Below, in pieces: positions 1 through 43,617 of a stretch of DNA of 64,000 nt. The stretch comes from an uncultured Clostridia bacterium (lineage in GTDB: Bacteria; Bacillota; Clostridia; Lachnospirales; CAMZNU01). Each line of letters starts with the position of its first letter. The first letter of the stretch is position 1. Under the pieces are notes generated by a model. The model searched no databases, was not told where the DNA came from, and saw only the letters and a program-made list of their open reading frames with translations. The stretch is taken from assembly GCA_947313885.1 (NCBI GenBank), contig CAMZNU010000020.1, forward strand, positions 437 through 64,436. Reading direction: 5' to 3'. Position numbers and translations under genes: made by a program.

Positions 1-771
1 TCAATATTGGGGTGGTCTACATCATAGACAAAACCACAATGAGCACGATAGCAAGGTTTTAGTCCCCTTCAATATTGGGGTGGTCTACATCATATTGGGC
101 AAATCGTCCTACACGTGCATGACGGTTTTAGTCCCCTTCAATATTGGGGTGGTCTACATCGTGGCTACAACGCCACATACCAACCGACGTAATGGTTTTA
201 GTCCCCTTCAATATTGGGGTGGTCTACATCTACACAATGAGGGCAAACGATTTTGCAAAGAGTTTTAGTCCCCTTCAATATTGGGGTGGTCTACATCCGA
301 GTCATGCGCACCGATTTCTCCGATGCACCAGTTTTAGTCCCCTTCAATATTGGGGTGGTCTACATCATTTAATAAATATTGATGCACACGGTGATAAAGT
401 TTTAGTCCCCTTCAATATTGGGGTGGTCTACATCCAGGGCGCCATACTGGGCATGGATGAAACAAGAGTTTTAGTCCCCTTCAATATTGGGGTGGTCTAC
501 ATCACTAGCAACGCAACAGCGACTGAAATTAAAGTTTTAGTCCCCTTCAATATTGGGGTGGTCTACATCAATAACAAACATAGAAACAAAAACGACATAG
601 TTTTAGTCCCCTTCAATATTGGGGTGGTCTACATCAGGAGAATAAGCGAAGCCAACGAAGAGTTGGCGTTTTAGTCCCCTTCAATATTGGGGTGGTCTAC
701 ATCAAACTCAAGGAAGGTTTTGTGTCTAAGTTTACGTTTTAGTCCCCTTCAATATTGGGGTGGTCTACATC
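1..771 (-). CRISPR. CRISPR array. The 36-bp repeat gttttagtccccttcaatattggggtggtctacatc (plus-strand reading) has 11 full copies starting at 56, 125, 195, 262, 331, 399, 468, 534, 600, 668 and 736, plus a truncated copy at 1-23. The array continues beyond the left window edge. The 11 spacers are 30-34 nt.
   Basis: I located every repeat by direct reading and all copies looked identical. Spacers are unique. The minus-strand repeat GATGTAGACCACCCCAATATTGAAGGGGACTAAAAC has a CCCC/GGGG stem and an ACUAAAAC 3' end like Cas13a repeats. Orientation was assigned from that match and from the leader and cas genes lying on the 772+ side. Confidence 0.97.
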
Positions 772-1024
772 CGCTAAGATTTGGTAATTTCATGTTTTTG
801 AAATTTATACTGTCATATGTTGTCTACTTCTGTCTAATTTAATATATTATATCATTTTATTTTGTAATAAGCAAACATTTTATTTTATAATTTACTTTAT
901 ATTCCTGCACTTATGCTAATTACCATTCTTATTATTTCTTTTAATAATATAAGCGTAAAAAATATTAATTTAAATATAACTTTAAAAACTTTTATAATGT
1001 TGTTCCCCTCCTTTATGTTTGTAA
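772..1024 (-). promoter_or_regulatory. CRISPR leader: an AT-rich non-coding stretch between the cas2 stop and the first (leader-proximal) repeat.
   Basis: No ORF is present and the region is very AT-rich. It is directly flanked by the cas2 stop (1025) and the repeat ending at 771. The position is what is expected for a leader if the array is transcribed on the minus strand. Confidence 0.7.
846..874 (-). promoter_or_regulatory. Candidate sigma-A type promoter for the pre-crRNA. On the minus strand it has -35 TTGCTT (869-874), a 17-nt spacer, and an extended -10 TGaTATAAT (846-854).
   Basis: The motifs were read directly. They point toward the array, about 75 nt upstream of the first repeat. 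AT-rich DNA produces such matches by chance, so this is tentative. Confidence 0.45.
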
Positions 1025-1351
1025 TTAAAATTCTAATATTTTTATTCTTTTTAACAAAATATTTTCCGCTATATTATATTTACCTTTTATAATATACATT
1101 TTTTCAAAATTTTTATTTGTTAAAATTAATCCTCTTATCTCTCCTTTTCTTGGAGCTAATTTTTTTAAATTACTTATACTTTTTACGCACTGTTCTTTTT
1201 CGTTAAAGCTACAGCAGTATATTGATTGCTGTAGCTGGTAGTATCCATATTTCATTATTTCTTTTCTGAATTTCCTATTTTGTTTAATATCATTTTTCTT
1301 TTTAGACGGTAAGTCATACATTATCATAACTACATATTTTCTACTACTCAT
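1025..1351 (-). CDS. cas2: CRISPR-associated endoribonuclease Cas2
   Basis: The 108-aa ORF has a Cas2-like N-terminus (YVVMIMYDL). It overlaps the cas1 stop by 8 nt and lies next to the leader and array. Confidence 0.85.
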   Translation of the reverse strand: MSSRKYVVMIMYDLPSKKKNDIKQNRKFRKEIMKYGYYQLQQSIYCCSFNEKEQCVKSISNLKKLAPRKGEIRGLILTNKNFEKMYIIKGKYNIAENILLKRIKILEF

Positions 1352-2240
1352 AACTATTCAACTCGTTTTTTATTTTTGGTATTTCACATTGCTCATCACC
1401 ATTTAGAAAATTTATTATACTATCTACATATAATTCTACACTTCGTTTAAAACTTACTTCATTTCCCCCTACTTCTAACGTTTGGGTTACTGTTAATAAT
1501 AAATGTTTTTTAAAATCGGTATCTAATTTTTTATATTTCTCTAATCCTATACATACCCCATAGTCTACAAGTGGTCTATATACTTCTATTATGTCATCGG
1601 CTAAATTGAATTCATTATACATACTTTTATGGCAAATGCCCAAACTTGGATGTAGTCCTTTTCCCACTACTATTGTACATATATATGACCTTAGTAAACT
1701 ATATCCATAATTTAAACTACTATTTATTAAGTTTTTATCTTTTCTATTAAATCCTTTATTAAACATTTTCTCAAAGTACACTTTTGCACTAATTGCCTCT
1801 AACCCATTTACTTCATTATATGTTTCCTTATTTTCCACATCATTTAAATATTTTTCTAATTTATTTCCTTCATCTCTATTCAAGTACGATAAAAGATTTT
1901 TTTGATGCTCTATTTTCTTCTCTATCATTTGCTTCCATAATTTTATTTTTTTATTTTCACTCCAACTTATTTGTTCTTTTAATCTTTCTGATACTTTAAA
2001 GTTGCCAAATAAATCTAATGTTATTATTTTGGGAATATGTTTATTATCGCAAAATATAACTGGGATGTTTTGCTCACCTAAAAATATCAACGTATAAACT
2101 GACACGCTAGTACTCATACTTTCAAATACTACTACCTCTATGTCTCTATGGTTTATATTAACTTTTTCACCTTCCTTTTTTAATATTAATGTGTCATTTC
2201 TACATTCTACTGACTCACAACTATTTATAAATAATATCAT
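1344..2240 (-). CDS. cas1: CRISPR-associated endonuclease Cas1
   Basis: The 298-aa ORF has Cas1-like blocks (NSSLNYGYSLL, GLHPSLGICH, NLADDIIEVYRPLVD). It is translationally coupled to cas2. An SD sequence AAGGAGA lies upstream of the ATG. Confidence 0.9.
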   Translation of the reverse strand: MILFINSCESVECRNDTLILKKEGEKVNINHRDIEVVVFESMSTSVSVYTLIFLGEQNIPVIFCDNKHIPKIITLDLFGNFKVSERLKEQISWSENKKIKLWKQMIEKKIEHQKNLLSYLNRDEGNKLEKYLNDVENKETYNEVNGLEAISAKVYFEKMFNKGFNRKDKNLINSSLNYGYSLLRSYICTIVVGKGLHPSLGICHKSMYNEFNLADDIIEVYRPLVDYGVCIGLEKYKKLDTDFKKHLLLTVTQTLEVGGNEVSFKRSVELYVDSIINFLNGDEQCEIPKIKNELNSYE

Positions 2241-2290
2241 ATTGTCTCCTTTTTTTAATATATCATTATTTATTGTTGCCTTATTTTTAC

Positions 2291-2334
2291 AAAAAAAACC
2301 ATATATACATATTATGTATACATGGTTTTTTTTT
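2291..2334 (-). terminator. Intrinsic terminator between cas13a and cas1. The hairpin is 2299-2308 / 2316-2325 (9 of 10 bp), flanked by an A8 run and a T9 run.
   Basis: The inverted repeat ccatatatac / gtatacatgg was read directly. On the minus-strand RNA the hairpin is followed by a U-run, and it starts right after the cas13a stop codon (2333-2335). Confidence 0.6.
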
Positions 2335-5300
2335 AAAATTTATGTGTTAATAACTTTTTAATGCGTTTAACATTTTCTTCATCGCCTTTTAAAGCTAAAA
2401 CTGATACTTTTTTATTTTCTATATATCCCCAGTTATCTGACTCTCCTTTTATTATTTCATTCTCTTTTATTACTCCGTCATGTCTTTTTCTTAATACGTC
2501 ATAATTTAAATTTACATCTCTTTTAAATGTTTCAAATACACTGTTTTTTATTGCATTGTTATACTTTGTTCTATATTTCATCGCATCTTCTAGTTCTTTT
2601 ACTCTATCTAATACCGATACATCGAATTCACATTTTAAAATATCTAAATGTGCTATTTTATTTCTTACAGCTCCTATTTCAAATTCATAAATATTAAAAA
2701 AGATATTTACTTTATCTCTTTCTATATTTTTATCTATGCTCTTCAAACCTTTTTGTAGTAATCCACTATTTAATTTAGCTCCTATATCTCGTTCTAGCCT
2801 ACTTGCATTAATAAGCATTTTCCACGTAATATCTGATAAATAATTGTTTATTTTCGTTATCCCTTCAAATTCTACTACCCCTTTTATCCTTTTGTATTCT
2901 CTTATTTCATCATAATCTTTTTTAAATTCTCCATACTCATAATCTTTTACTTTTTCATTTTCACTTCTATTTAACACGTTAGTAAATATTTTTCCATTTT
3001 TATTGATTTTATTTTTTATATTCTCTTTATACTCTTTTGTATGCCCTTTTAATTGTTCATTGAAGATTCTTAATGCTGTATCTACTTTATCTAGTTTTTT
3101 CACTATTTCTTTTTCATACTTTCCATTTTCTTTTTCTGTATTACTTTTTATTTTTTTTATTTCATCATATTCTAGATTTTTAAGCTCTTCTTTTAAAAAC
3201 ACATCATATAATTCTTTAAAATTTTTACTTGATATACTTGTTAATACGTTCTTTCTATATATATATTTTTTATCCTTTATATCGCCTTGCCAATATACGT
3301 CTTTGAATTTACCATTAAAATCATTTTCAAGTTCATTTACAAATTCATTATAAGCTTTTATATTTTTCGGTAATTTATCTTCAGTAAGTTTTCCGATTTC
3401 TTTTGTATCCATATCTCTTCTATGTATTTCAGCTCTTACGCTTATTATTTGATCTAATACATTTACTAAATCACTATACTTATCACTTTTTTTATCATTG
3501 TTAAAACTATTTAGCCATACATCTGTTGCAAAAAGTCTATTTCTTATTTTATTTACAACAGTTGGATTTACTAAAAAACAACTTAAAATTACAACTTCTT
3601 CAAATAAATTTGATATTTTTATAGGAGGGAATTCAACTTTATTTATTACAAAGTCTTCTTCTTTATCATCTTTACACCCTTTTAGATTTTCTAAGTCTGA
3701 AAAATCAAATAAACTTTCTTTATATTTATCAATTTTTATATATTTTATATCAATTTTACCATTTTCATCATTTTCAACTTTAACCACCTTATGTTCTAGA
3801 TAGTTTATATAGTTATCTATTATATCATTCTGGAATTTTTTAATCGCTTTTTTATTTCCTTTTGATGCGTTTTTTTGTGCTTTTTTATACTCATCTTCTA
3901 TATTATAGTCTATGTCCTTTCCGTATTTACTTTTTAACGCCTTCTCTTTATACGATTTTAGTTTTATATAAAAGCCAGTTTTTTCGCACATAGTTTCTTT
4001 TAAATACTTTGTTTTATGAAAATATATGATTCCATTTATTGCTTCTTCCTTTTCTTCTTTAGTTAACTCTTCTGATAATAATAATTCTTTTTTTATTCTA
4101 GGTACTAACCTTGAAAACGATGGGAAATATTTTTGTATGTTATCGCTTTCATATTTTAATTCATTTATCAAATCTATGATTCCTTTTTTACCTGTAAATA
4201 TTCCTATTATATTTAAAGTTTTACAAATATCTTTATCTTTTATTTCTAGCTCTTTTATAGTTTTCTCTATTTTACATTTTATCTTAGGTTTACTTTTAGT
4301 TTCTTCCTTGTATTTCTCATGTTTTTCTAGTCTATTATGAATTATATTACCCCTTACTTCTGCAACATTCCCAAAGAATGATTTTATATTTTCCTCACCT
4401 TGAGTATCAGTAAAATTTAGCAATTTTAATATGTCGAACATTTTACTATTATTAACTTCTTCCTCATCTAGTTTAATTTTTGTATCTTTACCTGCTATAA
4501 AATCCCCTCTTTCATCTTTGTCGCTGTTAATGTTATTTAACTCATAATTTAAGTAAGTAAACAATGCCAAAATTTCATGATCTAGTTCTTCCTCTGCGTG
4601 CAGCTTTTGAAATTCTATTGTATTTATGTCAATCTTTTTATCTTCCATATAACTTACTTTACCAAGGTACAATAAATGTTCTAATATGTGTTGTTGTAAT
4701 TTTATATAGCACTTTTCTTTTACTCTTTGCCCTTGTTTTGTATCTGGGTCTAAGTTTATAAATTTTCTTTGGTTTACCATCTTTCCTATTCTATCGTGTA
4801 TATGTCTATATATTGTACGGTATATTATTTTCTCTTCTGAAGAAAACACCTTACATTCAATCACCCCGTCATAATGTTCTTTATATATTTTATATAGTAC
4901 TGTATTTTCTGTTTCTGTATTTTCTGTTTCTGTTTTTTCTGTTTCTGTTTTTTCTGTTTCTGTTTTTTCTTCTTTACTATCTATGCTTTTTTTTAATTTT
5001 CGTGACAATTTTTTAAGTTGAAATTTTTTATACACTTTATCAAACTCTACTTCTAAGTCGTTCATTACATATGGTCTTTTATCTACTATTATTGCCTTTT
5101 TTTGTAATTCTTTTTCATACTTTTTTTCATTTTTAAGAATATCTAATAATTTATTTTTTTCCTTTTCATTTATCCAGTTGACATATTCAAAACCTTCTTT
5201 GCCATCTAAGTATTCATGTGACTTTTTTATTAGATCTTCTCTGTTCTTTTTTAACATCTTTTTCTTGTCATCATTATTTGGATTTGGATATTTTTCCATT

Positions 5301-6751
5301 ATATAGTCAATCGCATTTTTATTTTGGATACTAATTATCCTTTTAAGCTCCTTATTTATATCTTTCTTAACTTTGTTTTTTGACATGCTTTCTATACATT
5401 CATCTGTAAGTTCTTTATCTTCCTTTACTTCTATTTTTTCATTTTTTATAGCTTTTATTTTTTCATTTATATCATCATCTACCCATAATATCCTTTTATC
5501 AAGCTTTTCTTTTTCTTTTTCTTTTTTATTCAACTCTATTGTCTTTTTCTTAATAATTTTATTTATTTCAACTTCAAAATCCTCATCAGGTTTTATTTCT
5601 TTTTCATTTCTACTTGTTCCAAGTTTTAATAGTTTTTTTATTCCTTCGTTTTTACGTTCTTCCTTGGTTTCTCCATCTTTTTTAACTTTTTCTACTTCTT
5701 CTTTTTTATTTGTTTTATATTTTACATGTCTGTCATGTGTAATATATGTTCTTGTTAAGTTCGTCTCATCAGTATCTTTTTTAGGATTTAGCTTCTTAGG
5801 ATTTAGCTTCATTGTTTTTACGTATTCCCTTTTCACTAATTTAAAAGTTTTTAATTCTTCCACTAAAAAAGATATTATATCTTCATCTGTTATTTCAATA
5901 CCATCTGTAATATACCAATTTATTTTTTCGCACATTAGCTTTTTATTGTCAGAGAATTTTTTTTCTTTTGTAGGGTTTGATAAACCTGTATGAAAGTTTA
6001 AAAATTTTATGATTTCTTCTTTATATTTTGTTTTTTCTAGTTTACATTTAATGCATTCTATTTTATTTTTTATTTCTGTTATTTCTCCTTTATCTTCAAA
6101 TAAATCTATCATATCTTTTTTTAAGTTCTTTATGTAGTTTCTATTTAATTTTTGACATTTTTTTAAAATATTGCCCATCGACTCATATAACTGTTCATTT
6201 AAATTTATCATTATCCCATGTATTTCTTTTTTCAATTCAAATTCATCAGAGTCTAGTATTTTGTAGTATACATGTATTTTCTTCCGTATCTTCTTCTTTT
6301 CTATTTTATTGTATTCCTCTTTATTGCTATGAAATATTATATTTTTTCCTTTTATGTTTTTTATTGTTTTTATTTCTTCTTTTATATTTTTTTCACATTT
6401 TCTTTCTTTAACTGTTTTTAATTCATTTAACTTTTCCGTTATTTCCGCTCTAGTTACTTTTGTGTTGTTTTTTTGCCCTAATACTTCTATTCTCTCTATT
6501 TTTTTTATTTTAAATAAAATATTATTTTTATTAAATTTACCATATTTACCATCTAAGGTTTTACCATTATTCTTTCTGTACTTTTCTATTTCTTTTATAA
6601 AATCTTCATCAGATATAGATGATGTGTCACCTGTCATATCTTTTACTATTTCATAGTTTCCATCTTTCTCGTTCCATTTTCTTGCTAATTTTTTTCCTTT
6701 ATAACTTTCGTTATACCAAATATCATATGTAAACAATTTTTTACTCATCAT
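2333..6751 (-). CDS. cas13a: Type VI-A CRISPR effector Cas13a (C2c2), an RNA-guided RNase. It is 1472 aa; the start may be the second ATG at 6748.
   Basis: There are two HEPN R-x4-H motifs: RGNIIH (R800/H805) and RNKIAH (R1363/H1368). Several blocks match what I remember as conserved in Leptotrichia shahii Cas13a: LEHLLYLGK, LHAEEELD, KYFPSFS, ASKGNKKAIKK, LFDFSD, NKIRNRLFATDVWLN, RLERD and KYNN..SVFETFKRDVNLNYD. I recognised no RuvC or HNH blocks. The gene is adjacent to cas1-cas2 and a Cas13a-type repeat array. Confidence 0.93.
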   Translation of the reverse strand: MMSKKLFTYDIWYNESYKGKKLARKWNEKDGNYEIVKDMTGDTSSISDEDFIKEIEKYRKNNGKTLDGKYGKFNKNNILFKIKKIERIEVLGQKNNTKVTRAEITEKLNELKTVKERKCEKNIKEEIKTIKNIKGKNIIFHSNKEEYNKIEKKKIRKKIHVYYKILDSDEFELKKEIHGIMINLNEQLYESMGNILKKCQKLNRNYIKNLKKDMIDLFEDKGEITEIKNKIECIKCKLEKTKYKEEIIKFLNFHTGLSNPTKEKKFSDNKKLMCEKINWYITDGIEITDEDIISFLVEELKTFKLVKREYVKTMKLNPKKLNPKKDTDETNLTRTYITHDRHVKYKTNKKEEVEKVKKDGETKEERKNEGIKKLLKLGTSRNEKEIKPDEDFEVEINKIIKKKTIELNKKEKEKEKLDKRILWVDDDINEKIKAIKNEKIEVKEDKELTDECIESMSKNKVKKDINKELKRIISIQNKNAIDYIMEKYPNPNNDDKKKMLKKNREDLIKKSHEYLDGKEGFEYVNWINEKEKNKLLDILKNEKKYEKELQKKAIIVDKRPYVMNDLEVEFDKVYKKFQLKKLSRKLKKSIDSKEEKTETEKTETEKTETENTETENTVLYKIYKEHYDGVIECKVFSSEEKIIYRTIYRHIHDRIGKMVNQRKFINLDPDTKQGQRVKEKCYIKLQQHILEHLLYLGKVSYMEDKKIDINTIEFQKLHAEEELDHEILALFTYLNYELNNINSDKDERGDFIAGKDTKIKLDEEEVNNSKMFDILKLLNFTDTQGEENIKSFFGNVAEVRGNIIHNRLEKHEKYKEETKSKPKIKCKIEKTIKELEIKDKDICKTLNIIGIFTGKKGIIDLINELKYESDNIQKYFPSFSRLVPRIKKELLLSEELTKEEKEEAINGIIYFHKTKYLKETMCEKTGFYIKLKSYKEKALKSKYGKDIDYNIEDEYKKAQKNASKGNKKAIKKFQNDIIDNYINYLEHKVVKVENDENGKIDIKYIKIDKYKESLFDFSDLENLKGCKDDKEEDFVINKVEFPPIKISNLFEEVVILSCFLVNPTVVNKIRNRLFATDVWLNSFNNDKKSDKYSDLVNVLDQIISVRAEIHRRDMDTKEIGKLTEDKLPKNIKAYNEFVNELENDFNGKFKDVYWQGDIKDKKYIYRKNVLTSISSKNFKELYDVFLKEELKNLEYDEIKKIKSNTEKENGKYEKEIVKKLDKVDTALRIFNEQLKGHTKEYKENIKNKINKNGKIFTNVLNRSENEKVKDYEYGEFKKDYDEIREYKRIKGVVEFEGITKINNYLSDITWKMLINASRLERDIGAKLNSGLLQKGLKSIDKNIERDKVNIFFNIYEFEIGAVRNKIAHLDILKCEFDVSVLDRVKELEDAMKYRTKYNNAIKNSVFETFKRDVNLNYDVLRKRHDGVIKENEIIKGESDNWGYIENKKVSVLALKGDEENVKRIKKLLTHKF
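2648..2665 (-). other. HEPN-2 catalytic motif R-x4-H (RNKIAH; Arg1363, His1368 of Cas13a)
   Basis: The codons were read directly and are in frame. The motif lies 104 residues from the C-terminus, similar to what I recall for other Cas13a proteins. Confidence 0.85.
4337..4354 (-). other. HEPN-1 catalytic motif R-x4-H (RGNIIH; Arg800, His805 of Cas13a)
   Basis: The codons were read directly on the minus strand. They are in frame with the start at 6751. Confidence 0.8.
4901..4975 (-). repeat. In-frame 15-bp tandem repeat inside cas13a, with 4 near-perfect copies plus 1 degenerate copy. It encodes (K/N)TETE repeats.
   Basis: The units tgtattttctgtttc / tgttttttctgtttc were read directly. The protein track shows EEKTETEKTETEKTETENTETEN. 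Confidence 0.9.
5781..5810 (-). repeat. In-frame 15-bp tandem duplication inside cas13a, encoding KLNPK-KLNPK.
   Basis: The unit ttaggatttagcttc occurs twice, read directly. The protein track shows MKLNPKKLNPKK. Confidence 0.85.
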
Positions 6752-7129
6752 TACCCCCTTATAAACAATATTGTTATTTACATGTTATCATCTTTCATCT
6801 TGTCATTCTATTTATTTTTACATTTTTCTACAATTTAGTACAAATTTTTATATCGAACATATGTTATTGTCTTTTATTATATAATCTACAAAACTTTTTG
6901 TTGATTTTTAATAACTTTTATTATATTATAGTAAAGATGATTTTTAGGAGGTGGATACCATGGGTGCATATAAATTTTATTTTTTAAATACTAATACACG
7001 TTTAAAAAGTTTTTTTATTTCAAAAAAGCTATCTTTGTTATTCATTTCTATTTATTCTATTTTTAAAAATAAGGCAACTAATTTTATTAGTCGTCTTATT
7101 TTTTTGTCTATTAGGAGGTTTATAATTTT

Positions 7130-8377
7130 ATGGAAAATTCAAAAAGTGGTAACGTTGATTTAGATTTCTCATTTAGCGAGGTTGATAAAAGTAACAAAAA
7201 AGGTTTTATTACTATGTTTCTTATTATGCTAGGTTTCACTCTATTCTCTGGTAGCATGTTAACAGGTGCTACTCTTGGTAATGGTCTTAACTCTAGAAAT
7301 TTAATTTTAGCTATCGCTATTGGTAATGGGATATTAGCTATTTATTCTGCTCTTCTAGCTTACATAGGTGCTAAAACTTCTCTATCAACTCACCTTTTAT
7401 CAAAATATTCTTTTGGTGAGACTGGTTCTAAGTTTGGTTCTTTACTTCTTACTATCGCACAAATAGGTTGGTTTGGAGTTGGAGTATCTATGTTTTCAAT
7501 TCCTGTTAGCGAATTACTTAACATCAACGTATACATAGTAGCTTATATATCTGGTGCGTTAATGACTTATACCGCTTTTCACGGAATTAAAGCTGTTGCT
7601 ATTCTTAGTTCTGTTGCTGTTCCTTCTATATTAATACTAGGTGGTCTATCTATTATTAAAGCTACTAACGATATAGGCGGGATTAGTGGGCTTATTGAAA
7701 TAGAACCTACTCAAAGTCTTACTTTAGCTACAGCTATTTCTTTATGTGTAGGCTCTTTTATTAGCGGTGGTACATTAACGGCTGATTTTGTTAGGTTTGC
7801 TAAATCTACTAAGTCTGCAATTATAACTACAGTTATTGCTTTTTTCTTTGGTAATTCTATTATGTTTATTTTTGGTGCTATCGGTGGAATGGTTTATGGT
7901 ACTCCTGATGTATCTGATGTTTTAGCTACTCAAGGTTTCCTTTTAATTGGTGTTATAGTCCTTGGGTTTAACGTGTGGACTACTAATGATAACGGTCTAT
8001 ACTCATCTAGCCTTGCATTATCTTCTGTTATAAACATTAAAAAGAAAAAAACCGTTATTATAAACGGAATATTAGGTACTGTGTTTGCAATTTTTATAAA
8101 TAATAATTTTATAGGGTTTCTTTCTATATTAAGTACTACTCTTCCTGGTATCGGTAGTATTATTATCGCTGATTACTACATAGTAAAAAAAAGAAATTAT
8201 TCAACTTTTGAAAATGCTAACTTAGAAAAAATTAATTATATCGCCTTAGCATCTTGGTTAATCGGTTTTGTATTATCTAATTTATTACCTGGAATACCTC
8301 CTCTAAACGGTATTATTGTTACTATAGTAATTTATACCGTTACTATGAAATTTAAATTAAACATTTCGAAAGGATAA
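7130..8377 (+). CDS. codB: Cytosine permease (NCS1 family)
   Basis: This is a 415-aa polytopic membrane protein. An SD sequence AGGAGG lies 11 nt upstream. It sits 3 nt upstream of a cytosine deaminase gene, the classic codBA arrangement. Confidence 0.75.
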   Translation: MENSKSGNVDLDFSFSEVDKSNKKGFITMFLIMLGFTLFSGSMLTGATLGNGLNSRNLILAIAIGNGILAIYSALLAYIGAKTSLSTHLLSKYSFGETGSKFGSLLLTIAQIGWFGVGVSMFSIPVSELLNINVYIVAYISGALMTYTAFHGIKAVAILSSVAVPSILILGGLSIIKATNDIGGISGLIEIEPTQSLTLATAISLCVGSFISGGTLTADFVRFAKSTKSAIITTVIAFFFGNSIMFIFGAIGGMVYGTPDVSDVLATQGFLLIGVIVLGFNVWTTNDNGLYSSSLALSSVINIKKKKTVIINGILGTVFAIFINNNFIGFLSILSTTLPGIGSIIIADYYIVKKRNYSTFENANLEKINYIALASWLIGFVLSNLLPGIPPLNGIIVTIVIYTVTMKFKLNISKG

Positions 8378-8380
8378 TTT

Positions 8381-9640
8381 ATGTTAATTAAAAATGCTAA
8401 ACTTAGAAACCTTAACCACTCTGTCGACATTTTAATAGAAGGTGATGTTATAAAAGAAATTTCACCTTCTATTATTTCTAGCGACTCTAATATAATCAAT
8501 GCTAATAATAATTTAGTATTAGAACCTTTTATAGAACCTCATGTTCATCTTGATACTGCCCTTAGCGCTGGGCAACCACGTTGGAATAAAAGTGGTACTC
8601 TTTTTGAAGGTATTGAATGCTGGAGTGAAAAAAAAGAAACTCTTACTTATGATGATGTTAAAAAAAGAAGTAAAAAAGCTTTGGAATGGCAAATAGCTAA
8701 CGGTATTCAATGGGTACGTACTCATGTTGATATTACTGACCCTACTTTTACCGCTCTAAAAGTTTTATTAGAACTAAAAGAAGAAATGAAGCAATTCGTA
8801 AATATTCAAATAGTAGCATTCCCTCAAGAAGGAATATTATCTTTTCCTAATGGTTTGAAGCTTCTTGAAGATGCTTTAATATTAGGTGCTGACGTCATAG
8901 GTGGTATACCTCATTTTGAATATACTAGAGACCTTGGCGTACAATCTATTAAAGAAATTGTTAAACTCGCAATTAAATACGATAAATTAATTGACGTTCA
9001 TTGTGATGAAATTGATGATGAACAATCTAGATTTTTAGAAGTGTTAGCTACAGAAGCACTTTTTAATAACATAGGTACGAAAGTAACAGCTAGCCACACT
9101 ACTGCTATGGGTTCATATAATGACCCATACACTTACAAACTTTTTAGGCTACTTCGTAAATCAAACATTAATTTCATTTCTAACCCCCTTGTAAATATTC
9201 ACTTAGGTGGTAGATTTGATAGTTATCCTAAACGACGTGGTTTAACTCGCGTTAAAGAACTTGATCAAGATAATATTAATGTATGCTTTGGACACGATGA
9301 TATTTTTGACCCCTGGTATCCTCTTGGTAACGGTAACATGTTGCAAGTTCTTCACATGGGATTACATGTATCTCATATGATGGGTTATGATGATATTTCT
9401 AATTGTCTAGACTTTATTACCTGCAACAGTGCTAAAACTTTACACTTAGGCGATGAATATAAATTGAAAGTTGGCAATAAAGCTAATTTAATTATTCTTA
9501 GTGAACAAAATGATTATGATGCCGTTAAATTACAAGCTTCTGTTTTATTTTCTATAAAAAATGGAGTGGTTATTTCTAAATCAACACCTAAGCAATCTTA
9601 TATATTTACAACTAATAAAAAATTTATTGACTTTAAATAA
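8381..9640 (+). CDS. codA: Cytosine deaminase (amidohydrolase superfamily)
   Basis: The block [30 protein letters not shown] closely resembles the remembered E. coli CodA N-terminal block. HCDE and GHDD metal-ligand motifs are present. Confidence 0.85.
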
Positions 9641-9699
9641 TAGTATTGTTATATTTTTTTATATACATTAATACATATATATTTAAAAAGGAGATTTTT

Positions 9700-10401
9700 A
9701 TGGATTTTAAAAAGTACTCAGACAAAATATTAAAAGGTGGTTTTTCACTTATAATATTTACTATTTTAATTACTAATGCAATAACTTTTGTACTCGGTCG
9801 TGGTTTTCATACTATCGACACTTTAGTTATGACTATTTTATTTTTAACAGCTTATTTATATAGCGAAAAATTATTTATAAATAAAGCTAGTATGGTTCCA
9901 CCATCATTTTTTTACATCTCTATGATTTTTGGATTTTTCTCAACTTTCTTAGGTAGCTATTTAAATTTCTATGAACTTTTTGAATTTTGGGATGATTTAT
10001 TACATTTTATTTCTGGTATATTACTTGGAATACTTTGTATCATTATTATTACATACGTAATTACTAAACGTTTTGGCGTAATTACTAGACCTATTGATAT
10101 TTTAGCTATGGTAGTTTTTGGAGTTCTTATTAGTATTTCTATCGCCGTTTTTTGGGAATTTTATGAATTCGCTTTTGATTATTTATTTGACGGTAATATG
10201 CAACGTAGCATAATCGTAACTGATGTTAATTCCTTTGACTTTACCCCGTACTTAAGACCCTCTGGTAGATTTATGGATCCTGGGCTTCTTGATACTATGG
10301 GTGATTTTTTACAAGCTGTTGCTGGTGCAATATTAGCTGGTGTTTATTGCTATATGCACTTCTCATTAGTCTCATCAACTGTTTCTTATAAAAATAAATA
10401 G
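9700..10401 (+). CDS. Hypothetical integral membrane protein, with the start reassigned to the internal ATG that has an SD sequence.
   Basis: The protein is hydrophobic and multi-TM. AAAGGAG lies 7 nt before the ATG at 9700. The ORF-track start at 9646 has no SD. I did not recognise the family. Confidence 0.55.
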   Translation: MDFKKYSDKILKGGFSLIIFTILITNAITFVLGRGFHTIDTLVMTILFLTAYLYSEKLFINKASMVPPSFFYISMIFGFFSTFLGSYLNFYELFEFWDDLLHFISGILLGILCIIIITYVITKRFGVITRPIDILAMVVFGVLISISIAVFWEFYEFAFDYLFDGNMQRSIIVTDVNSFDFTPYLRPSGRFMDPGLLDTMGDFLQAVAGAILAGVYCYMHFSLVSSTVSYKNK

Positions 10402-10453: not shown

Positions 10454-11797
10454 TTATTTACCTAATCCTAATAATCCTGCTTTTGTTATAAAATTCTCTG
10501 GTTTATTGAAATGTGGTAAGAAAAATAAATCTGTTAATGCTAATTTATCTATTGAATAGTGTTCTTGCACTGCCAAACTAAAGAAATGTAATGCTAACGT
10601 TATATCTGTTGTTGATGCCATTTGTGCTCCTAAAATTCTTCTTGAATCTTTATCCCATACTACTTTTAACGTAACTTCATCATTCACTGGCATGAAATCC
10701 GCTTTAATTGTATCTGTTACTTCTACAGAATTTACATTATATCCTAATCTCTTCGCTTCACCTTCTGTTATTCCTGTTGAACATAATGTATCGCCAAATA
10801 TATGTATAGCGTTAGATCCTTGCACTCCTAACATCTCAACATCTGCACCACCTGCATTTAATCCTGCTACTATACCACTTCTTACTGCATTTGTCGCTAG
10901 AGCTATATGTGTGTAATCTTCTACTGCATTGTTATACATCATACCACAATCACCTATTGCATACACATCTTTTACACTAGTTTCAAGTTTTTTATTTGTT
11001 TTAATAGCCCCGTTTCCGTACATTTCTATTTTTCCTTCTAACATATGTGTTCTTGGTTTAAATCCTATACACATAAGTACTAAGTCGGCTTTATAACTAC
11101 CTTTTTCTGTTATTACTGTAGTTACTTTACCATCTTTACCTTTAAATTCTGTTACTCTCTCCCCTATTCTTAAATCAATTCCATTTTCCACTAACTTATC
11201 GTGCATTCTTTTTTGAAACGGCTCGTCATAGTATCTATTTAAAACTTCATAGTCATTTATTAATGTAGTTTTTTTACCTCGCATTTTAAATGCCTCGGCA
11301 AGTTCTACTCCTATATATCCTGCTCCTACTACTACTACATTTTGTATACTTTCATCTTTTATTTTTTCAATAACAGCTTCTGCATTTTGGAATATTTTTG
11401 CATACATTATATTTTCTAAATCATATCCTTTTAATTTTGGTAATATCGGCCATGACCCTATCGCTAAAATTAATTTATCATAACTATCTTCAATATTCTC
11501 ACCTGTTATTACATTTTTTAGAGTTATTTTTTTCTTATCAAAGTCAACTTCCATCATTTCATGATCCATATAAACATTAGCACCTAATTCTTTTAATTCT
11601 TCTGGTGATGAATAAAATAAACCTTCTGATGACGTTATTACATTAGATATCCATAATGCCATACCACATCCTAAAAACGATATATTATTATTTCTATCAT
11701 ATGTCGTAACTTCTGTTGTATCCTTAAAGTTTTGTAAAATTGTTTTTATTGCATATGTTCCTGCATGATTTGCACCTACTACTATTATTTTACTCAT
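10454..11797 (-). CDS. nox: NADH oxidase (Nox/Npr family FAD-dependent pyridine nucleotide-disulfide oxidoreductase)
   Basis: GANHAG and GAGYIG dinucleotide folds are present. The redox-active Cys context SFLGCGMALW is typical of NADH oxidase/peroxidase. Confidence 0.8.
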   Translation of the reverse strand: MSKIIVVGANHAGTYAIKTILQNFKDTTEVTTYDRNNNISFLGCGMALWISNVITSSEGLFYSSPEELKELGANVYMDHEMMEVDFDKKKITLKNVITGENIEDSYDKLILAIGSWPILPKLKGYDLENIMYAKIFQNAEAVIEKIKDESIQNVVVVGAGYIGVELAEAFKMRGKKTTLINDYEVLNRYYDEPFQKRMHDKLVENGIDLRIGERVTEFKGKDGKVTTVITEKGSYKADLVLMCIGFKPRTHMLEGKIEMYGNGAIKTNKKLETSVKDVYAIGDCGMMYNNAVEDYTHIALATNAVRSGIVAGLNAGGADVEMLGVQGSNAIHIFGDTLCSTGITEGEAKRLGYNVNSVEVTDTIKADFMPVNDEVTLKVVWDKDSRRILGAQMASTTDITLALHFFSLAVQEHYSIDKLALTDLFFLPHFNKPENFITKAGLLGLGK

Positions 11798-11972: not shown

Positions 11973-12022
11973 AAAAGGGATAAAAAAATACTTCTATTAA
12001 GAAGTATTTTTTTATCCCTTTT
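11973..12022 (-). terminator. Intrinsic terminator downstream of alaS, with a 22-bp perfect stem.
   Basis: The arms aaaagggataaaaaaatacttc / gaagtatttttttatccctttt were read directly. Confidence 0.8.
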
Positions 12023-14658
12023 TACTTTAAATCATCTTTTATTATTTCTAAACCTTTTTCTAAAGCCTCATTCTTTTTGTTTAATAAACTTCCGCCACCT
12101 TGTGCCATATTAGGTCGTCCGCCACCTCGACCATCTACAACTTTTGATGCCTCTTTTATAACGTTCCCAGCATGTACTCCTTTTTTAACTAAATCCTCTG
12201 TTACCATGCATAATATATTAACTTTACCTTTATCTTCTGATACGAATAACACTACCGAAGATTTAATTTTATCTTTTATTTTATCCCCTAACTCTTTTAA
12301 TTCATTTATAGTTTTATTTTCTAGCACTTCACTTACTATTTTTACACCGTCTATTTCATTAGCTTTATTTATTAATTCATCTACAATACCCGATGCATTT
12401 TTTGATTTCATTTTTTTAATTTCTTTTTCTAATTCATTATTATTTTCTAGTACGCTTTTTAATTTATTTATTAAGTTGCTTTTATCTGTTTTTAAAATCT
12501 CTCTTACTAATTGTAATTCATCTTCTAAGTTATTAACGTATTGTAACGCTTTGCTTCCTGTTACAGCTTCAATTCTTCTTATACCTGATGAAATACCTGA
12601 TTCACTTATTATTTTAAACGTACCTATACTACTACTGTTTTTTAAATGCGTACCACCGCATAGCTCTATACTATAGTCGCCAACTGATACTACTCTTACA
12701 ACGTCTGAATATTTCTCGCCAAATAATGACATTGCACCCATTTTTTTAGCATCTTCAATATTTTTTTCTACTATGCTAATAGACATAGATTTTAAAATTA
12801 TTTCATTTACTTTTTGTTCTACTAATTTTATTTCCTTACTTGTCATAGGTTCAAAATGATTAAAGTCAAATCTTAGTCTATCTTTTGTAACGTTACTACC
12901 TGCTTGCTCTACATGGTCTCCTAAAACTTCTTTTAAAACTTTATGAAGTATATGTGTCGCCGTATGGTTTCTTGTAACTGATTCTCTTACATCTTCATCT
13001 ACTTCTATTTCTACTTTATCTTTTATATTTAAAGTTCCTTTAACTACTTCGCCTACATGTACAAATTTATCCCCTGCAAATTTTACACAATCTTTAATTT
13101 TAACAGTACATTCATTTGTACATATAATTCCAACATCTCCACATTGTCCACCACTCTCTGCATAAAATGTTGTTCCATCTAAAATTATTGCTACTTCCTC
13201 ACCGTTACATGCATTTTCTACTATTTCACCGTTAACTGTCATAGCTAATATTTTAGATTCGCATTTATTATTTTCATACCCGTCAAATTTTGTACTTATT
13301 AAATTTTTAGCATTGTCAAATCCTGATTTTTCTTTTCCTGTATATGATGTTTCTTTTCTTGCATCTCTTCCACGTTGTTTTTGCTTTTCCATTTCTTCTT
13401 TGAATCCTACTAAATCAATTTTTATCCCTCTATCCTCTAATAACTCTTCCATTACTTCTATAGGAAAACCATAGGTGTCATACATTTTAAATACATCTAC
13501 TCCACTTATTATATTGTCGTTTTCTTCCTTCGCCTTTTTACAAATTTCATTTACTACTTTCATTCCTTGTTCTATAGTTTCATAAAATTTACTTTCTTCT
13601 ACTGTCATTATTTTATTTATGTATTGCTTTTTCTCTTCTAACTCTTCATATGCACCTTTATAAATATTTATTATTTCTTCTACAATTTGCTGAACAAACG
13701 CTTTATTTATATTTAATTTTTTACCATGGGCTATTGCTCTTCTTAATAATTTTCTTAATACATATCCTCGTCCTTCATTAGATGGCATTACTCCATCACT
13801 AACTAAAAACGTACTTGCTTTTACATGGTCGGCTATTATTCTTACTGAAACATCTTTATCTTTATCACTACCATATTCATAATTACCAATTTCACATATT
13901 TTTTTAATTATTTTTTTACTTATGTCTATATCAAATATGTTGTTTTCTCGTTGTAATATAGTGCTTATTCTTTCTAACCCCATGCCTGTATCTACACTTG
14001 GGTTTTCTAATTTCGTCATTTTTCCTTCTGCATCTTTATCAAACTGAATAAATACTAAATTCCAAAATTCTAAATATCTATCACAGTCACACCCAACTCC
14101 ACATGTTTTAGAATCACATCCGTATTCCTCTCCCATATCATAATATAACTCTGTACATGGTCCACACGGTCCTACTCCTATTTCCCAAAAATTATCTTCT
14201 TCTAATCTTGAAATTCTATTTTTAGGTACTCCTATTTTTTTATGCCATATATCATATGTCTCATCGTCTGTTGTATATACTGTTACATACAACTTATCTA
14301 ACGGTAATTTTAATACTTCTGTAACAAACTCCCATGTCCATGGTATTATTTCCTCTTTAAAATAATCTCCAAATGAAAAATTTCCTAACATTTCAAAAAA
14401 TGTACCGTGTCTTGCTGTTTTACCTACGTTTTCTATATCCCCTGTTCTTATACACTTTTGTGCTGTTGTTACCCTTTTTGACGGTGGCTCTTCTATTGCT
14501 AAAAAATAATTTTTCATAGGTGCCATTCCTGCATTTATTAGCAATAAACTTTTATCATTATTTGGTACTAATGAAAAGCTTTTTAATCTTTTATGGTTTT
14601 TTTCTTCAAAAAACTGTAAAAATAATTCTCTTATCTCATTTGCTTTTAAATTTTCCAT
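12022..14658 (-). CDS. alaS: Alanine--tRNA ligase
   Basis: 878 aa with canonical AlaRS blocks (FFEMLGNFSFGDYFK, HTATHILH, CGGTH). Confidence 0.96.
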   Translation of the reverse strand: MENLKANEIRELFLQFFEEKNHKRLKSFSLVPNNDKSLLLINAGMAPMKNYFLAIEEPPSKRVTTAQKCIRTGDIENVGKTARHGTFFEMLGNFSFGDYFKEEIIPWTWEFVTEVLKLPLDKLYVTVYTTDDETYDIWHKKIGVPKNRISRLEEDNFWEIGVGPCGPCTELYYDMGEEYGCDSKTCGVGCDCDRYLEFWNLVFIQFDKDAEGKMTKLENPSVDTGMGLERISTILQRENNIFDIDISKKIIKKICEIGNYEYGSDKDKDVSVRIIADHVKASTFLVSDGVMPSNEGRGYVLRKLLRRAIAHGKKLNINKAFVQQIVEEIINIYKGAYEELEEKKQYINKIMTVEESKFYETIEQGMKVVNEICKKAKEENDNIISGVDVFKMYDTYGFPIEVMEELLEDRGIKIDLVGFKEEMEKQKQRGRDARKETSYTGKEKSGFDNAKNLISTKFDGYENNKCESKILAMTVNGEIVENACNGEEVAIILDGTTFYAESGGQCGDVGIICTNECTVKIKDCVKFAGDKFVHVGEVVKGTLNIKDKVEIEVDEDVRESVTRNHTATHILHKVLKEVLGDHVEQAGSNVTKDRLRFDFNHFEPMTSKEIKLVEQKVNEIILKSMSISIVEKNIEDAKKMGAMSLFGEKYSDVVRVVSVGDYSIELCGGTHLKNSSSIGTFKIISESGISSGIRRIEAVTGSKALQYVNNLEDELQLVREILKTDKSNLINKLKSVLENNNELEKEIKKMKSKNASGIVDELINKANEIDGVKIVSEVLENKTINELKELGDKIKDKIKSSVVLFVSEDKGKVNILCMVTEDLVKKGVHAGNVIKEASKVVDGRGGGRPNMAQGGGSLLNKKNEALEKGLEIIKDDLK

Positions 14659-19137: not shown

Positions 19138-19794
19138 TTATTTCACCAACGCTAATGCATTTAAATTATTTTGTTTCTCATAACCTATAGTTGTGCTAAA
19201 CATATGCCCTGGATACACTTTTATATTGTCATCTAATTTAAATATTTTAATAATACTTCTTTTTAAATCACCTTCATTACTTGTTGGTAGATCGCTTCTA
19301 CCAATATTACCTTTAAATAATGTATCTCCTGTAAATAAAATTTTATTTTCTTCATCTAAATAACATGCACAACCTTTTGTATGTCCTGGTGTAAATATTG
19401 TTTTTATTTTAAAGCCTTTGAACTCTATTACTTCATCATCTTTTAATAAAACGCTTGGTGTTATTTGCACACTACTAACACCTTTATCACCTCGTACTCC
19501 TGATAAATTTATATCTGGATTTTCTAATACAAACTTTTCTTCCTTATGAGCATATATTTTAGCTTTTGTAAATTCCTTAACTTCCTTTACTGCTAATATG
19601 TGATCATAATGCCCGTGTGTTAAAAATATACCTTTTATATTTAATTGTTTTTCTTTTATAAATTCTATTATTCTACTTCCGTAATCCCCTGGATCTATTA
19701 TTATTCCTTCTTTACTTTCTTCGTTAAAATATATATATACATTTTCTGTAGTGTGTCTAATTTCTATTTTCTTTAACTTCATTTTTTCTCCCAC
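19138..19794 (-). CDS. MBL-fold metallo-hydrolase, paralogue 2
   Basis: It has the THGHYDH motif and the TPGHT and GD..F blocks. Confidence 0.8.
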   Translation of the reverse strand: MGEKMKLKKIEIRHTTENVYIYFNEESKEGIIIDPGDYGSRIIEFIKEKQLNIKGIFLTHGHYDHILAVKEVKEFTKAKIYAHKEEKFVLENPDINLSGVRGDKGVSSVQITPSVLLKDDEVIEFKGFKIKTIFTPGHTKGCACYLDEENKILFTGDTLFKGNIGRSDLPTSNEGDLKRSIIKIFKLDDNIKVYPGHMFSTTIGYEKQNNLNALALVK

Positions 19795-20433
19795 TTATTG
19801 TTTCAATGCTAATACTGCTTTATTGTTAGCTTTTTCATTCCCTATAGTTGTATCACTCATATGCCCAGGAAATACTTTTACCTCATCTTCTAATTTAAAT
19901 AATTTTTCGAATATGCTATGTCCTAAATCTTTTGCATTTCCTGTTGGAAAATCCGTTCTTCCATGAGTTAATCTAAATAATGTGTCACCTGTAAACATTA
20001 CTTCGTTACTTTCGTCTAAATAACACACTCCACCTTTTGTATGTCCTGGCGTAAATATCGTTTTCATTTTAAAACTTTTAAAACCTATTATATCTCCGTC
20101 TTCTAAAAAAACATCTGCTTCTACTATTATTCCCCTGTTACCCATTTCTGCTGAAAAATTATACTTCGGATCTTCTAGAATACTTTGTTCCTCTTTATGC
20201 GCATATACTTTACATTTCGTAAACTCTTTTATTTTTTCAACTCCCATTATGTGATCAAAGTGTCCATGAGTTAAAAGTATTCCTTGTATGTCTAGATTTT
20301 CTTCTTTTATGAAATTTATTATATCTTCTTCTGCACCACCTGGATCTACCACTATTCCAACTTTTGTAGTTTCATCAAAATATACATATACATTTTCTGT
20401 AGTTTCTTTAACTATTATTCTTTTTACTAACAT
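19795..20433 (-). CDS. MBL-fold metallo-hydrolase, paralogue 1
   Basis: It has the THGHFDH motif. It is collinear with the neighbouring paralogue, at roughly half identity by eye. Confidence 0.8.
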   Translation of the reverse strand: MLVKRIIVKETTENVYVYFDETTKVGIVVDPGGAEEDIINFIKEENLDIQGILLTHGHFDHIMGVEKIKEFTKCKVYAHKEEQSILEDPKYNFSAEMGNRGIIVEADVFLEDGDIIGFKSFKMKTIFTPGHTKGGVCYLDESNEVMFTGDTLFRLTHGRTDFPTGNAKDLGHSIFEKLFKLEDEVKVFPGHMSDTTIGNEKANNKAVLALKQ

Positions 20434-40640: not shown

Positions 40641-40665
40641 AAAAAAATCGGCTAAGCCGATTTTT
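40641..40665 (-). terminator. Short intrinsic terminator after spoVT
   Basis: The sequence aaaaatcggc taa gccgattttt was read directly. Confidence 0.6.
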
Positions 40666-41206
40666 AATTATTTGATTGTTTTTCAAAAAATAATCCTACC
40701 GTTTCAATAATTTTTTCATCTGTTTCCTTTATTTTATTATTTTCACAAAAAATAACTATTCCGCCAATATTATCTCCATTAGCATTTATTGGTCTAATTA
40801 AATAATACTTAGGGCTAAATGAACTTTCTAAATCTTTAAAAAATTCTACTTCTTTTGTATATTCTCCTTTTGTTTTTTTTCTTTCATTTAATACGTCTTC
40901 TAACTCTGTTGTTATTAACTTATCTTTTATTTCTTTTGAACCTATTCCTGATACAGCTATTACTCTATCTCTATCAACTATACATGCCGTATGTCCTAAT
41001 ATTTCTGTTAAACTTTCACATATTCCTATAGCATAATCGCTTATTTCTCCCATTGGTGAAAACTTTTTTAAAATAACTTCACTTTTATTATTTGTAAATA
41101 TTTCTAAAAGCTCACCTTCTCGTATTCGTAACGTACGACGCATTTCCTTGGGAATTACTATCCTGCCCAAATCATCTATTCTTCTTACAATTCCTGTTGC
41201 CTTCAA
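40664..41206 (-). CDS. spoVT: Stage V sporulation protein T (AbrB-type DNA-binding domain plus a GAF-like domain)
   Basis: The N-terminus MKATGIVRRIDDLGRIVIPKEMRRTLRIREGE is almost identical to the remembered B. subtilis SpoVT. The 180-aa length fits. Confidence 0.85.
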   Translation of the reverse strand: MKATGIVRRIDDLGRIVIPKEMRRTLRIREGELLEIFTNNKSEVILKKFSPMGEISDYAIGICESLTEILGHTACIVDRDRVIAVSGIGSKEIKDKLITTELEDVLNERKKTKGEYTKEVEFFKDLESSFSPKYYLIRPINANGDNIGGIVIFCENNKIKETDEKIIETVGLFFEKQSNN

Positions 41207-42828: not shown

Positions 42829-43617
42829 TTATTTAACAGGTGGTGCAAAAACATCCATAGGGAATTCTATTCCATCAAAAAATTCACATGGTGTTACTCC
42901 TGTACATTCACAATTTTTTGGCTCACACATACCTCTAGATTCTACTTGCATATCTACTAATCTACATACTTTTATTACTGTAAATAATCCTATTGTTACT
43001 AATACCGCATTTGCTTCTGGTGGATAATCCTCTGGGCTACTTTCATTTCCACATCCACATTTTTTTACTTTTGCAAAATGTAGTTTAGCTTCTAGCGATA
43101 CCGCCTTACCTTCTACTATTACAAATGGATCCGCTTCTAAAACATTTCCTAAACTTTGTGTTAACAAATCCGATGCTATTACTATATCTGTTCCTTCTGA
43201 ACCAAATAAACATACTTTTTTATTGTAAATGCTGTTTGCTTTTACTGTCCCTATTATTGAACCATTTGATTCTCTAAATGTTAACGTATACACAAACACG
43301 TATCTTATACTTATATCCCAATATCCTTTTTTAAACGGACTTGGCTCTTTCCCAACTATCATTATTTTCTTAGTTCTTAATTTATCTATAGACACTGTTG
43401 CCGCATTTGATGGTGGATCTATTATTTCACCTTTTATTATTTCTTCATCACCTAAAGTTGTATTTTCCGCCGCTCTTGCTGGACCTAAAACATCCGTTCT
43501 GCAACAATCTTGCACTTTACAAGAATCATATATTTTTAGTGCCACTATGCAATTCTCATCCATTATCTTGTTATCTATTTCATTCTTATAGCTATTTTCA
43601 AATTCAAATGTACCCAT
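42829..43617 (-). CDS. Cysteine-rich hypothetical protein (262 aa, 13 Cys clustered at both ends)
   Basis: A strong SD sequence (AGGAGGA) precedes the ATG and the composition looks coding. I did not recognise the family. Confidence 0.6.
   Translation of the reverse strand: MGTFEFENSYKNEIDNKIMDENCIVALKIYDSCKVQDCCRTDVLGPARAAENTTLGDEEIIKGEIIDPPSNAATVSIDKLRTKKIMIVGKEPSPFKKGYWDISIRYVFVYTLTFRESNGSIIGTVKANSIYNKKVCLFGSEGTDIVIASDLLTQSLGNVLEADPFVIVEGKAVSLEAKLHFAKVKKCGCGNESSPEDYPPEANAVLVTIGLFTVIKVCRLVDMQVESRGMCEPKNCECTGVTPCEFFDGIEFPMDVFAPPVK

Follow-up and report, generated by a model that had tools for sequence, protein, structure and literature searches.

The window analysed here, a 64,000-nucleotide (nt) stretch of contig CAMZNU010000020.1, opens with a CRISPR-Cas locus on the minus strand at positions 1-6751, comprising cas13a, cas1, cas2, a leader and a repeat array. 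Very probably it belongs to class 2, type VI-A, and has as its effector a deep-branching Cas13a ortholog with a unique, charged and predicted helical insertion of about 215 amino acids (aa). Cas13a systems perform CRISPR RNA (crRNA)-guided cleavage of single-stranded RNA, accompanied by collateral RNase activity. Three minus-strand open reading frames (ORFs) encode the proteins, of 1472 aa (2333-6751), 298 aa (1344-2240) and 108 aa (1025-1351). These genes, the repeats and spacers, the 253-bp leader and two catalytic motifs at R800 and R1363 had been listed in an initial annotation of the sequence, and all were recovered where it had placed them.

The 1472-aa product of cas13a belongs, by phmmer and Foldseek, to the clade of long Cas13a proteins that resemble that of Leptotrichia shahii (Lsh), within which it is deeply divergent. 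A phmmer search of the PDB matched LshCas13a (5wtj, 5wtk and 7dmq) with E=3.5e-69 and 237 bits over residues 7-1457, in four collinear stretches (query 7-375, 611-1215, 1122-1336 and 1358-1457, corresponding to Lsh 5-371, 395-1005, 1016-1211 and 1273-1366). For an AlphaFold (AF2) model of residues 611-1472 (predicted local distance difference test, pLDDT, 75.5; predicted template modelling score, pTM, 0.77), Foldseek returned 7dmq first (E=4e-26, template modelling score, TM, 0.67), with 5wtk at TM 0.74; the top 19 PDB matches are all Cas13a, those of Lbu, Lse, Rca and Lba following Lsh, and Cas13d comes no closer than E~1e-4 and TM~0.3. A second model, of residues 1-1200, matched the Lsh ribonucleoprotein 5wtk (E=4.9e-21, TM 0.50). 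Both predicted halves thus match LshCas13a structures first (TM 0.50-0.74), and the structural comparison suggested in the initial annotation bears out its assignment. The protein has the bilobed Cas13a fold, with the N-terminal domain (NTD) forming, together with Helical-1, a recognition (REC) lobe and HEPN1, Helical-2, the linker and HEPN2 forming a nuclease (NUC) lobe, and it carries two R-x4-H HEPN motifs, one central and one C-terminal; the domain order NTD, Helical-1, HEPN1, Helical-2, linker, HEPN2 is common to it and LshCas13a/C2c2 (PDB 5WTJ, 5WTK, 7DMQ). No RuvC, HNH or other DNA-nuclease domain was found by Pfam at E<=0.01, in agreement with what the initial annotation had said of RuvC and HNH, and the sole PADLOC and NCBIfam matches are to Cas13a. 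A DNA-targeting effector is rejected on this domain and fold evidence.

The HEPN1 motif, R800-G-N-I-I-H805 (4337-4354, minus strand), and the HEPN2 motif, R1363-N-K-I-A-H1368 (2648-2665, minus strand), are conserved throughout the family: R800 and H805, and R1363, N1364 and H1368, are invariant in alignments of 17, 20 and 5 sequences, including the protein from a Leptotrichia metagenome-assembled genome (MAG) that passes the curated Cas13a model. R1363 aligns with Lsh R1278, within the phmmer stretch covering Lsh 1273-1366. In Helical-1, R654-I-G-K657 (4781-4792, minus strand) contributes to a 'GRIEKI'-like motif whose residues R654 and K657 do not vary within the family. Counting along the phmmer alignment, these two residues correspond to Lsh R438 and K441, which we take to be pre-crRNA processing residues, a role reportedly described by Liu et al. 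in 2017. LshCas13a is the best structural match and shares both the HEPN motifs and the Helical-1 R/K pair, although it is only about 26-28% identical to the window protein in structural alignments and its deposited chains have 1391-1397 residues as against 1472 aa here. LbuCas13a (5xwy/5xwp) has the same fold (E~1e-10 to 1e-11, TM 0.52-0.56) but is much more distant; LbuCas13a and LwaCas13a, of about 1150 aa, are some 300 aa shorter, with about 16% identity in structural alignment.

Downstream of the effector lie cas1 (1344-2240, minus strand; 298 aa), a member of the type-II-like (NMENI) clade with 241.7 bits on TIGR03639 against a cutoff of 120, and cas2 (1025-1351, minus strand; 108 aa), which scores 61.2 bits on TIGR01573 (cutoff 24.5), 47.6 bits on PF09827 and 89.8 bits on PADLOC Cas2_II. 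Cas1 matches Streptococcus pyogenes Cas1 (PDB 4zkj) at E=2.9e-34 with the Glu, His and Glu positions conserved, which we take to be the catalytic residues. Judged by sequence, the pair is an adaptation module with a type-II-like Cas1, both proteins lying above curated cutoffs. The closest Cas1 anywhere, at 51% identity, is encoded on Logan contig SRR23346875_3830 and likewise adjoins a long Cas13a.

The CRISPR array (1-771, minus strand) consists of 11 identical 36-bp repeats and 11 unique spacers, together with a repeat that is cut at the window edge (1-23). On the plus strand the perfect copies read GTTTTAGTCCCCTTCAATATTGGGGTGGTCTACATC and start at 56, 125, 195, 262, 331, 399, 468, 534, 600, 668 and 736; the spacers measure 30-34 nt and no two are alike. 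Since the partial repeat at 1-23 preserves 23 bp, the array continues past the start of the window and its distal end lies outside it. Allowing up to three mismatches, the repeat has 11 matches in the window against none expected from 100 shuffles, with no further copies elsewhere in the window and none upstream of cas13a. Two plus-strand ORFs (80-268 and 144-674) cross the repeats and are artefacts of the periodic array rather than genes. The leader (772-1024, minus strand) is a 253-bp sequence of 20% guanine plus cytosine (GC) between cas2 and the first repeat, and is the presumed array promoter and spacer integration site. At the other end of the locus, the intergenic region between the divergent cas13a (minus) and codB (plus) genes, at 6752-7129, presumably holds the cas operon promoter; a promoter scan returned 55 sites against 46 expected, which is not discriminating in such AT-rich DNA, and terminators were likewise at background. 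An Rfam scan of the window at gathering thresholds gave no matches, and no tRNAs were found in it.

In crRNA sense the repeat is read from the minus strand as GATGTAGACCACCCCAATATTGAAGGGGACTAAAAC, an orientation that follows from its identity to the Lsh 5' handle and from the matching orientation of repeats and cas genes in Fusobacterium sp. PH5-44 and the Leptotrichia MAG. The published 28-nt Lsh handle is CCACCCCAATATCGAAGGGGACTAAAAC (PMC6315463). The corresponding 28 nt of the window repeat, CCACCCCAATATTGAAGGGGACTAAAAC, agree at 27 of 28 positions, the sole change being one loop base, so that the likeness to the Lsh repeat that the initial annotation had pointed out holds against the published sequence. 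The handle would end, in crRNA sense, in ...GACUAAAAC; a CCCC/GGGG stem is predicted, and the repeat reads ...GAAGGGG-AC-UAAAAC. In Cas13a handles a dinucleotide bulge of AC marks U-cleaving enzymes and AA marks A-cleaving ones (review PMC8209922, section 2.2). The AC bulge is kept here, as in the handles of the U-cleaving LbuCas13a and LwaCas13a, and predicts that the window protein is a member of the U-cleaving subfamily (Lsh/Lbu/Lwa type). Repeat identity is 34 of 36 positions with the Leptotrichia MAG and 32-34 of 36 across the three loci compared below; that 34 of 36 are kept at about 33% protein identity indicates continued constraint on the protein-RNA interaction. A metagenome search with the exact repeat variant matched solely the degenerating end of another, Lsh-like array (contig ODTK01000351.1, 1-215), in which the repeats drift through ...CAACATCGAAGGGG... 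and ...CAATATTGAAGGGG... before a truncated terminal repeat. The loop variant of the window therefore also comes about through repeat degeneration in other arrays.

Relatives of the effector are few and remote. The full-length protein proved unsuitable as a query because low-complexity lysine/glutamate (K/E) words swamped the search (in a database of 5.8 billion proteins it returned itself and one relative), and an exhaustive HMMER search of 1.84 billion representatives was therefore made with residues 611-1472 at E<=1e-3. It recovered 27 proteins, the full-length members mostly of 1250-1420 aa, together with a few shorter proteins and fragments, and the best match other than the protein itself is 37% identical. 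In an alignment of 17 sequences no member exceeds 35% identity to the window Cas13a, which occupies its own long branch. A genome scan with a five-sequence alignment yielded two loci, and a metagenome scan with the Cas13a protein found no relative.

Three related, uncharacterised loci with long Cas13a proteins were compared with the window: those of Fusobacterium sp. PH5-44 (L001), the uncultured Leptotrichia MAG (L002) and Logan contig SRR23346875_3830 (L005). All three have the order cas13a, cas1, cas2, array and the repeat orientation seen in the window, and the Lsh-like Leptotrichia MAG resembles it in having cas1-cas2 beside the effector and the array downstream. Their Cas13a proteins, 30-33% identical to that of the window, share its invariant residues, and none has a large insertion. 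Window Cas1 and Cas2 share 37-41% identity with their L001 and L002 counterparts, whereas Cas13a, Cas1 and Cas2 of these two loci are 39-54% identical to each other (54% for Cas1/Cas2). Given module identities of 30-41% against 39-54% between L001 and L002, and of 51% at best for Cas1, the whole window module represents a deep branch. There are differences of layout also: L001 has two arrays of the same repeat, one upstream of cas13a (4954-5330) and one downstream of cas2 (11173-11409), whereas the window has the downstream array alone, and the leader is 253 bp long here as against approximately 70-140 bp in L001 and L002. Elsewhere in the clade, a 1355-aa Cas13a relative (P0002; L007 192-4906) is followed by a DUF1706 gene in place of cas1, and so an adjacent adaptation module is not universal.

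The most distinctive feature of the window protein, missed in the initial annotation along with its identity of at most 35-37% to any relative, is the insertion at the junction of NTD and Helical-1 (residues ~348-612, net ~215 aa; 4916-5710, minus strand), which is defined by alignment with relatives. From H342 at the end of the NTD to Y627 in Helical-1, both invariant, there are 284 aa here, as against 59-77 aa in 16 of 16 aligned relatives and about 91 aa in L005; the blocks missing from relatives are 348-410, 417-424, 439-562 and 594-612. In the alignment with Lsh, query residues 376-610 stand opposite Lsh 372-394, a segment of about 23 residues. The insertion is 52% charged, with K/E runs, and its GC content equals that of the rest of cas13a. 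Long helices are predicted, with pLDDT of 27-57. Searches for a Pfam domain, an internal duplication or likeness to other sequence in the window were negative. At its C-terminal edge is an in-frame (TETEK)n tandem repeat with a 15-bp unit (4900-4970, minus strand; 4.7 copies, 98% match), opposite which L005 has a single 'TEKTDT'; recent replication slippage therefore accounts for part of the expansion. A second in-frame 15-bp tandem repeat in cas13a, (KLNPK) in two copies with 100% match, lies at 5781-5810. Both tracts could change length between strains through slippage.

The insertion is most likely a tolerated surface elaboration and not a source of new activity. It is unlikely that it is instead a working module that gives this type VI-A effector a functionally distinct architecture, by gating crRNA loading or activation, binding a partner or localising the protein. 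The idea draws on its position in the REC lobe, whose cleft between NTD and Helical-1 accommodates the crRNA handle (PMC8209922), and on its occurrence in neither the 16 aligned relatives nor L005. The insertion is moreover in frame and compositionally ameliorated, its stretches that are not of low complexity are predicted as long helices, and it brings the protein to 1472 aa, the maximum of a family in which the other listed relatives do not exceed 1420 aa. It has, however, no recognisable domain and a low pLDDT, and high charge, K/E runs and an expanding TETEK microsatellite are typical of neutral surface expansion in AT-rich genomes. Nor is the insertion kept in any sister lineage, and hence there is no evidence of selection on it.

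The spacers, which lie between positions 24 and 735, were compared with the window itself and with several sequence collections. Matches elsewhere in the window never exceed runs of 12 nt, so that no self-targeting is seen there. No protospacers were found for the whole array in GenBank phages or PLSDB plasmids, apart from one chance 28-nt plasmid match, and none in IMG/VR for the 22-nt cores of 8 of the 11 spacers. Spacer GC averages 42.3%, whereas 32-mers drawn from host genes have 30.3 +/- 8.9% (p~1e-5 by resampling); the spacers of L001 and L002, at 23-29% GC, are like their hosts and not enriched. On the target-sense strand 9 of 11 spacers are richer in A than in T (exact sign-flip p=0.004), with a mean skew of +0.36, and L001 and L002 together show a trend in the same direction (9/12, p=0.088). 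Because host coding strands also have more A than T (skew +0.16), this bias is what would be expected if the crRNAs retained were antisense to transcripts, and it is suggestive of antisense targeting.

Homology, fold and architecture, the conserved catalytic residues, and the identity and orientation of the repeats lead us to infer a locus that would be expressed and active, with a preference for U and with ongoing adaptation. As in characterised Cas13a systems, the leader would drive minus-strand transcription of a pre-crRNA, which Cas13a itself would cut by means of Helical-1 R654/K657, leaving a repeat-derived 5' handle and a spacer. On pairing of the spacer with a complementary transcript, R800/H805 and R1363/H1368 would form a composite HEPN RNase that cleaves target and bystander RNA, cutting at U as predicted from the AC bulge of the handle, while Cas1-Cas2 may insert new spacers at the leader end. 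A functional system is favoured by the intact 4.4-kb ORF at 29% GC, the invariant catalytic residues, the identical repeats and a handle that is strongly conserved. The initial annotation had described the locus as intact and still able to acquire spacers; the conserved Cas1 active site, the identical repeats and the uninterrupted ORF favour both statements, which are best kept conditional. Sequence, fold, catalytic motifs and gene order, together with the type and orientation of the repeat, uphold its wider proposal of a minus-strand type VI-A system with its own cas1-cas2.

Several results nevertheless weigh against an active type VI-A system with a divergent Cas13a. Pfam reports no family for the 1472-aa protein at E<=0.01; its PADLOC score is at most 49 bits; and on the NCBIfam model NF038188 (cas13A_C2c2) it reaches 22.7 bits, on the C-terminus alone, far below the cutoff of 150. 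Taken strictly, the profile comparison that the initial annotation had envisaged for this protein goes against the assignment. As a control, five relatives (L001:5705-9820, L002:9908-14050, P0002, P0003 and P0007) were scored on NF038188: the Leptotrichia MAG protein (L002) obtained 428 bits and the other clade members 37-93 bits, and the low score of the window protein consequently reflects limited coverage of the clade by the model and not non-membership. The insertion, of which the model is of low confidence, sits within the lobe that accommodates the crRNA handle and might interfere with function. The searches for relatives brought up none close enough for a test of purifying selection. 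With regard to RNA targeting, searches of the window, phages, plasmids and IMG/VR yielded no protospacer, and the skew test rests on 11 spacers, in which G and C are about equal, unlike host coding strands.

These points might instead indicate a decaying or inactive relic, in which Cas13a has been disabled by the insertion or by other divergence and the array is a fossil. Extreme divergence (identity of at most 35-37%, with the curated cutoff missed), a large insertion in the crRNA-binding lobe and the want of any spacer with a known target are all compatible with such a history. We nonetheless consider it improbable. The 4.4-kb ORF is uninterrupted in a genome of 29% GC where stop codons arise easily; the catalytic residues and R654/K657 are all invariant; the 11 repeats show no differences and Cas1 retains its active site; and a repeat conserved at 34 of 36 positions, when protein identity has fallen to about 33%, points to continued constraint. 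Two further readings, of the effector as a member of a different type VI subtype (Cas13b, c, d or later) or as a HEPN protein unrelated to CRISPR and beside an array by chance, are effectively refuted by the LshCas13a homology and fold matches: although weak Foldseek matches to Cas13d exist and R-x4-H motifs occur across many HEPN families, the homology to LshCas13a is collinear and full-length, including the NTD and Helical-1 that Cas13d is without (PMC8209922), the repeat is of VI-A type and gives a crRNA with a 5' handle, and the relatives are all long Cas13a proteins beside cas1-cas2 and the same repeats. Cas13d (type VI-D), in particular, was rejected since it has about 930 aa rather than 1472, no Helical-1 and repeats with a 30-nt handle, whereas the NTD and Helical-1 of the window protein are homologous to those of Lsh.

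The visible flank of the locus is of housekeeping character. Adjacent to cas13a are codB (7130-8377, plus strand) and codA (8381-9640), and the window further contains genes for NADH oxidase, alaS, aspS, hisS, hemZ, relA/spoT, an RND pump, addA, tgt, rnf, asnS, pnp and cshA. The codBA neighbourhood and the absence of mobile elements, both reported in the initial annotation, apply to this side, where codB and codA flank the locus and no mobile-element genes are seen; the other flank lies outside the window. An ORF downstream of codA (9646-10401, plus strand; 251 aa) has no Pfam or NCBIfam match and another (42829-43617, minus strand; 262 aa) has no Pfam match, and nothing ties either of them to the CRISPR locus. 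Between hemZ and a D-Tyr-tRNA deacylase gene lie tandem paralogous genes with a metallo-beta-lactamase fold (19138-20433, minus strand; 218 and 212 aa).

Lsh-like Cas13a is best known in Fusobacteriota, L. shahii itself being a fusobacterium, whereas the host here appears to be a Clostridia-like spore-former. Its AlaS (12022-14658, minus strand) is at most 67% identical to any database entry, its best matches among named organisms are those of Clostridia (Defluviitalea, Caloramator, Lachnospirales) at 53-56%, and a SpoVT-like protein with an AbrB/MazE N-terminal domain and SpoVT_C is encoded at 40664-41206 (minus strand). Taken together, the AlaS identities and the SpoVT homologue suggest that the host is probably an undersampled spore-forming Bacillota lineage and not a fusobacterium, even though its Cas13a belongs to the Lsh-like clade. 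One could envisage that this poorly sampled lineage of spore-forming, Clostridia-like bacteria received an Lsh-type VI-A module by transfer, that the module is directed there against transcripts of unusually GC-rich (~42%) mobile elements, and that the insertion is a functional add-on altering crRNA loading, activation or regulation; we hold this picture to be unlikely. If the insertion were such an add-on, the protein would be a structurally new Cas13a variant, with activation properties that are possibly different.

What is new at this locus is a very divergent ortholog with one unusual architectural feature; the type VI-A kind is already known and, biologically, this is an ordinary defence locus. 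The initial annotation treated the family as already described; the system is well characterised and this is a further ortholog. With scores of 22-93 bits against a cutoff of 150, neither the protein nor most of its clade is picked up by the curated Cas13a model, and such loci are therefore likely to be labelled 'hypothetical protein'; of the clade proteins scored on NF038188 only the Lsh-like L002 protein passes, and the others probably go unnamed in automatic annotation. Tools for RNA detection and RNA knockdown are built on Cas13a, and its natural diversity is what better enzymes can be drawn from. The REC-lobe insertion marks a site that tolerates large additions and may serve fusion engineering, while a near-unchanged Lsh-type handle at no more than 35-37% protein identity constitutes a natural experiment, in which the protein has changed around a fixed guide scaffold.

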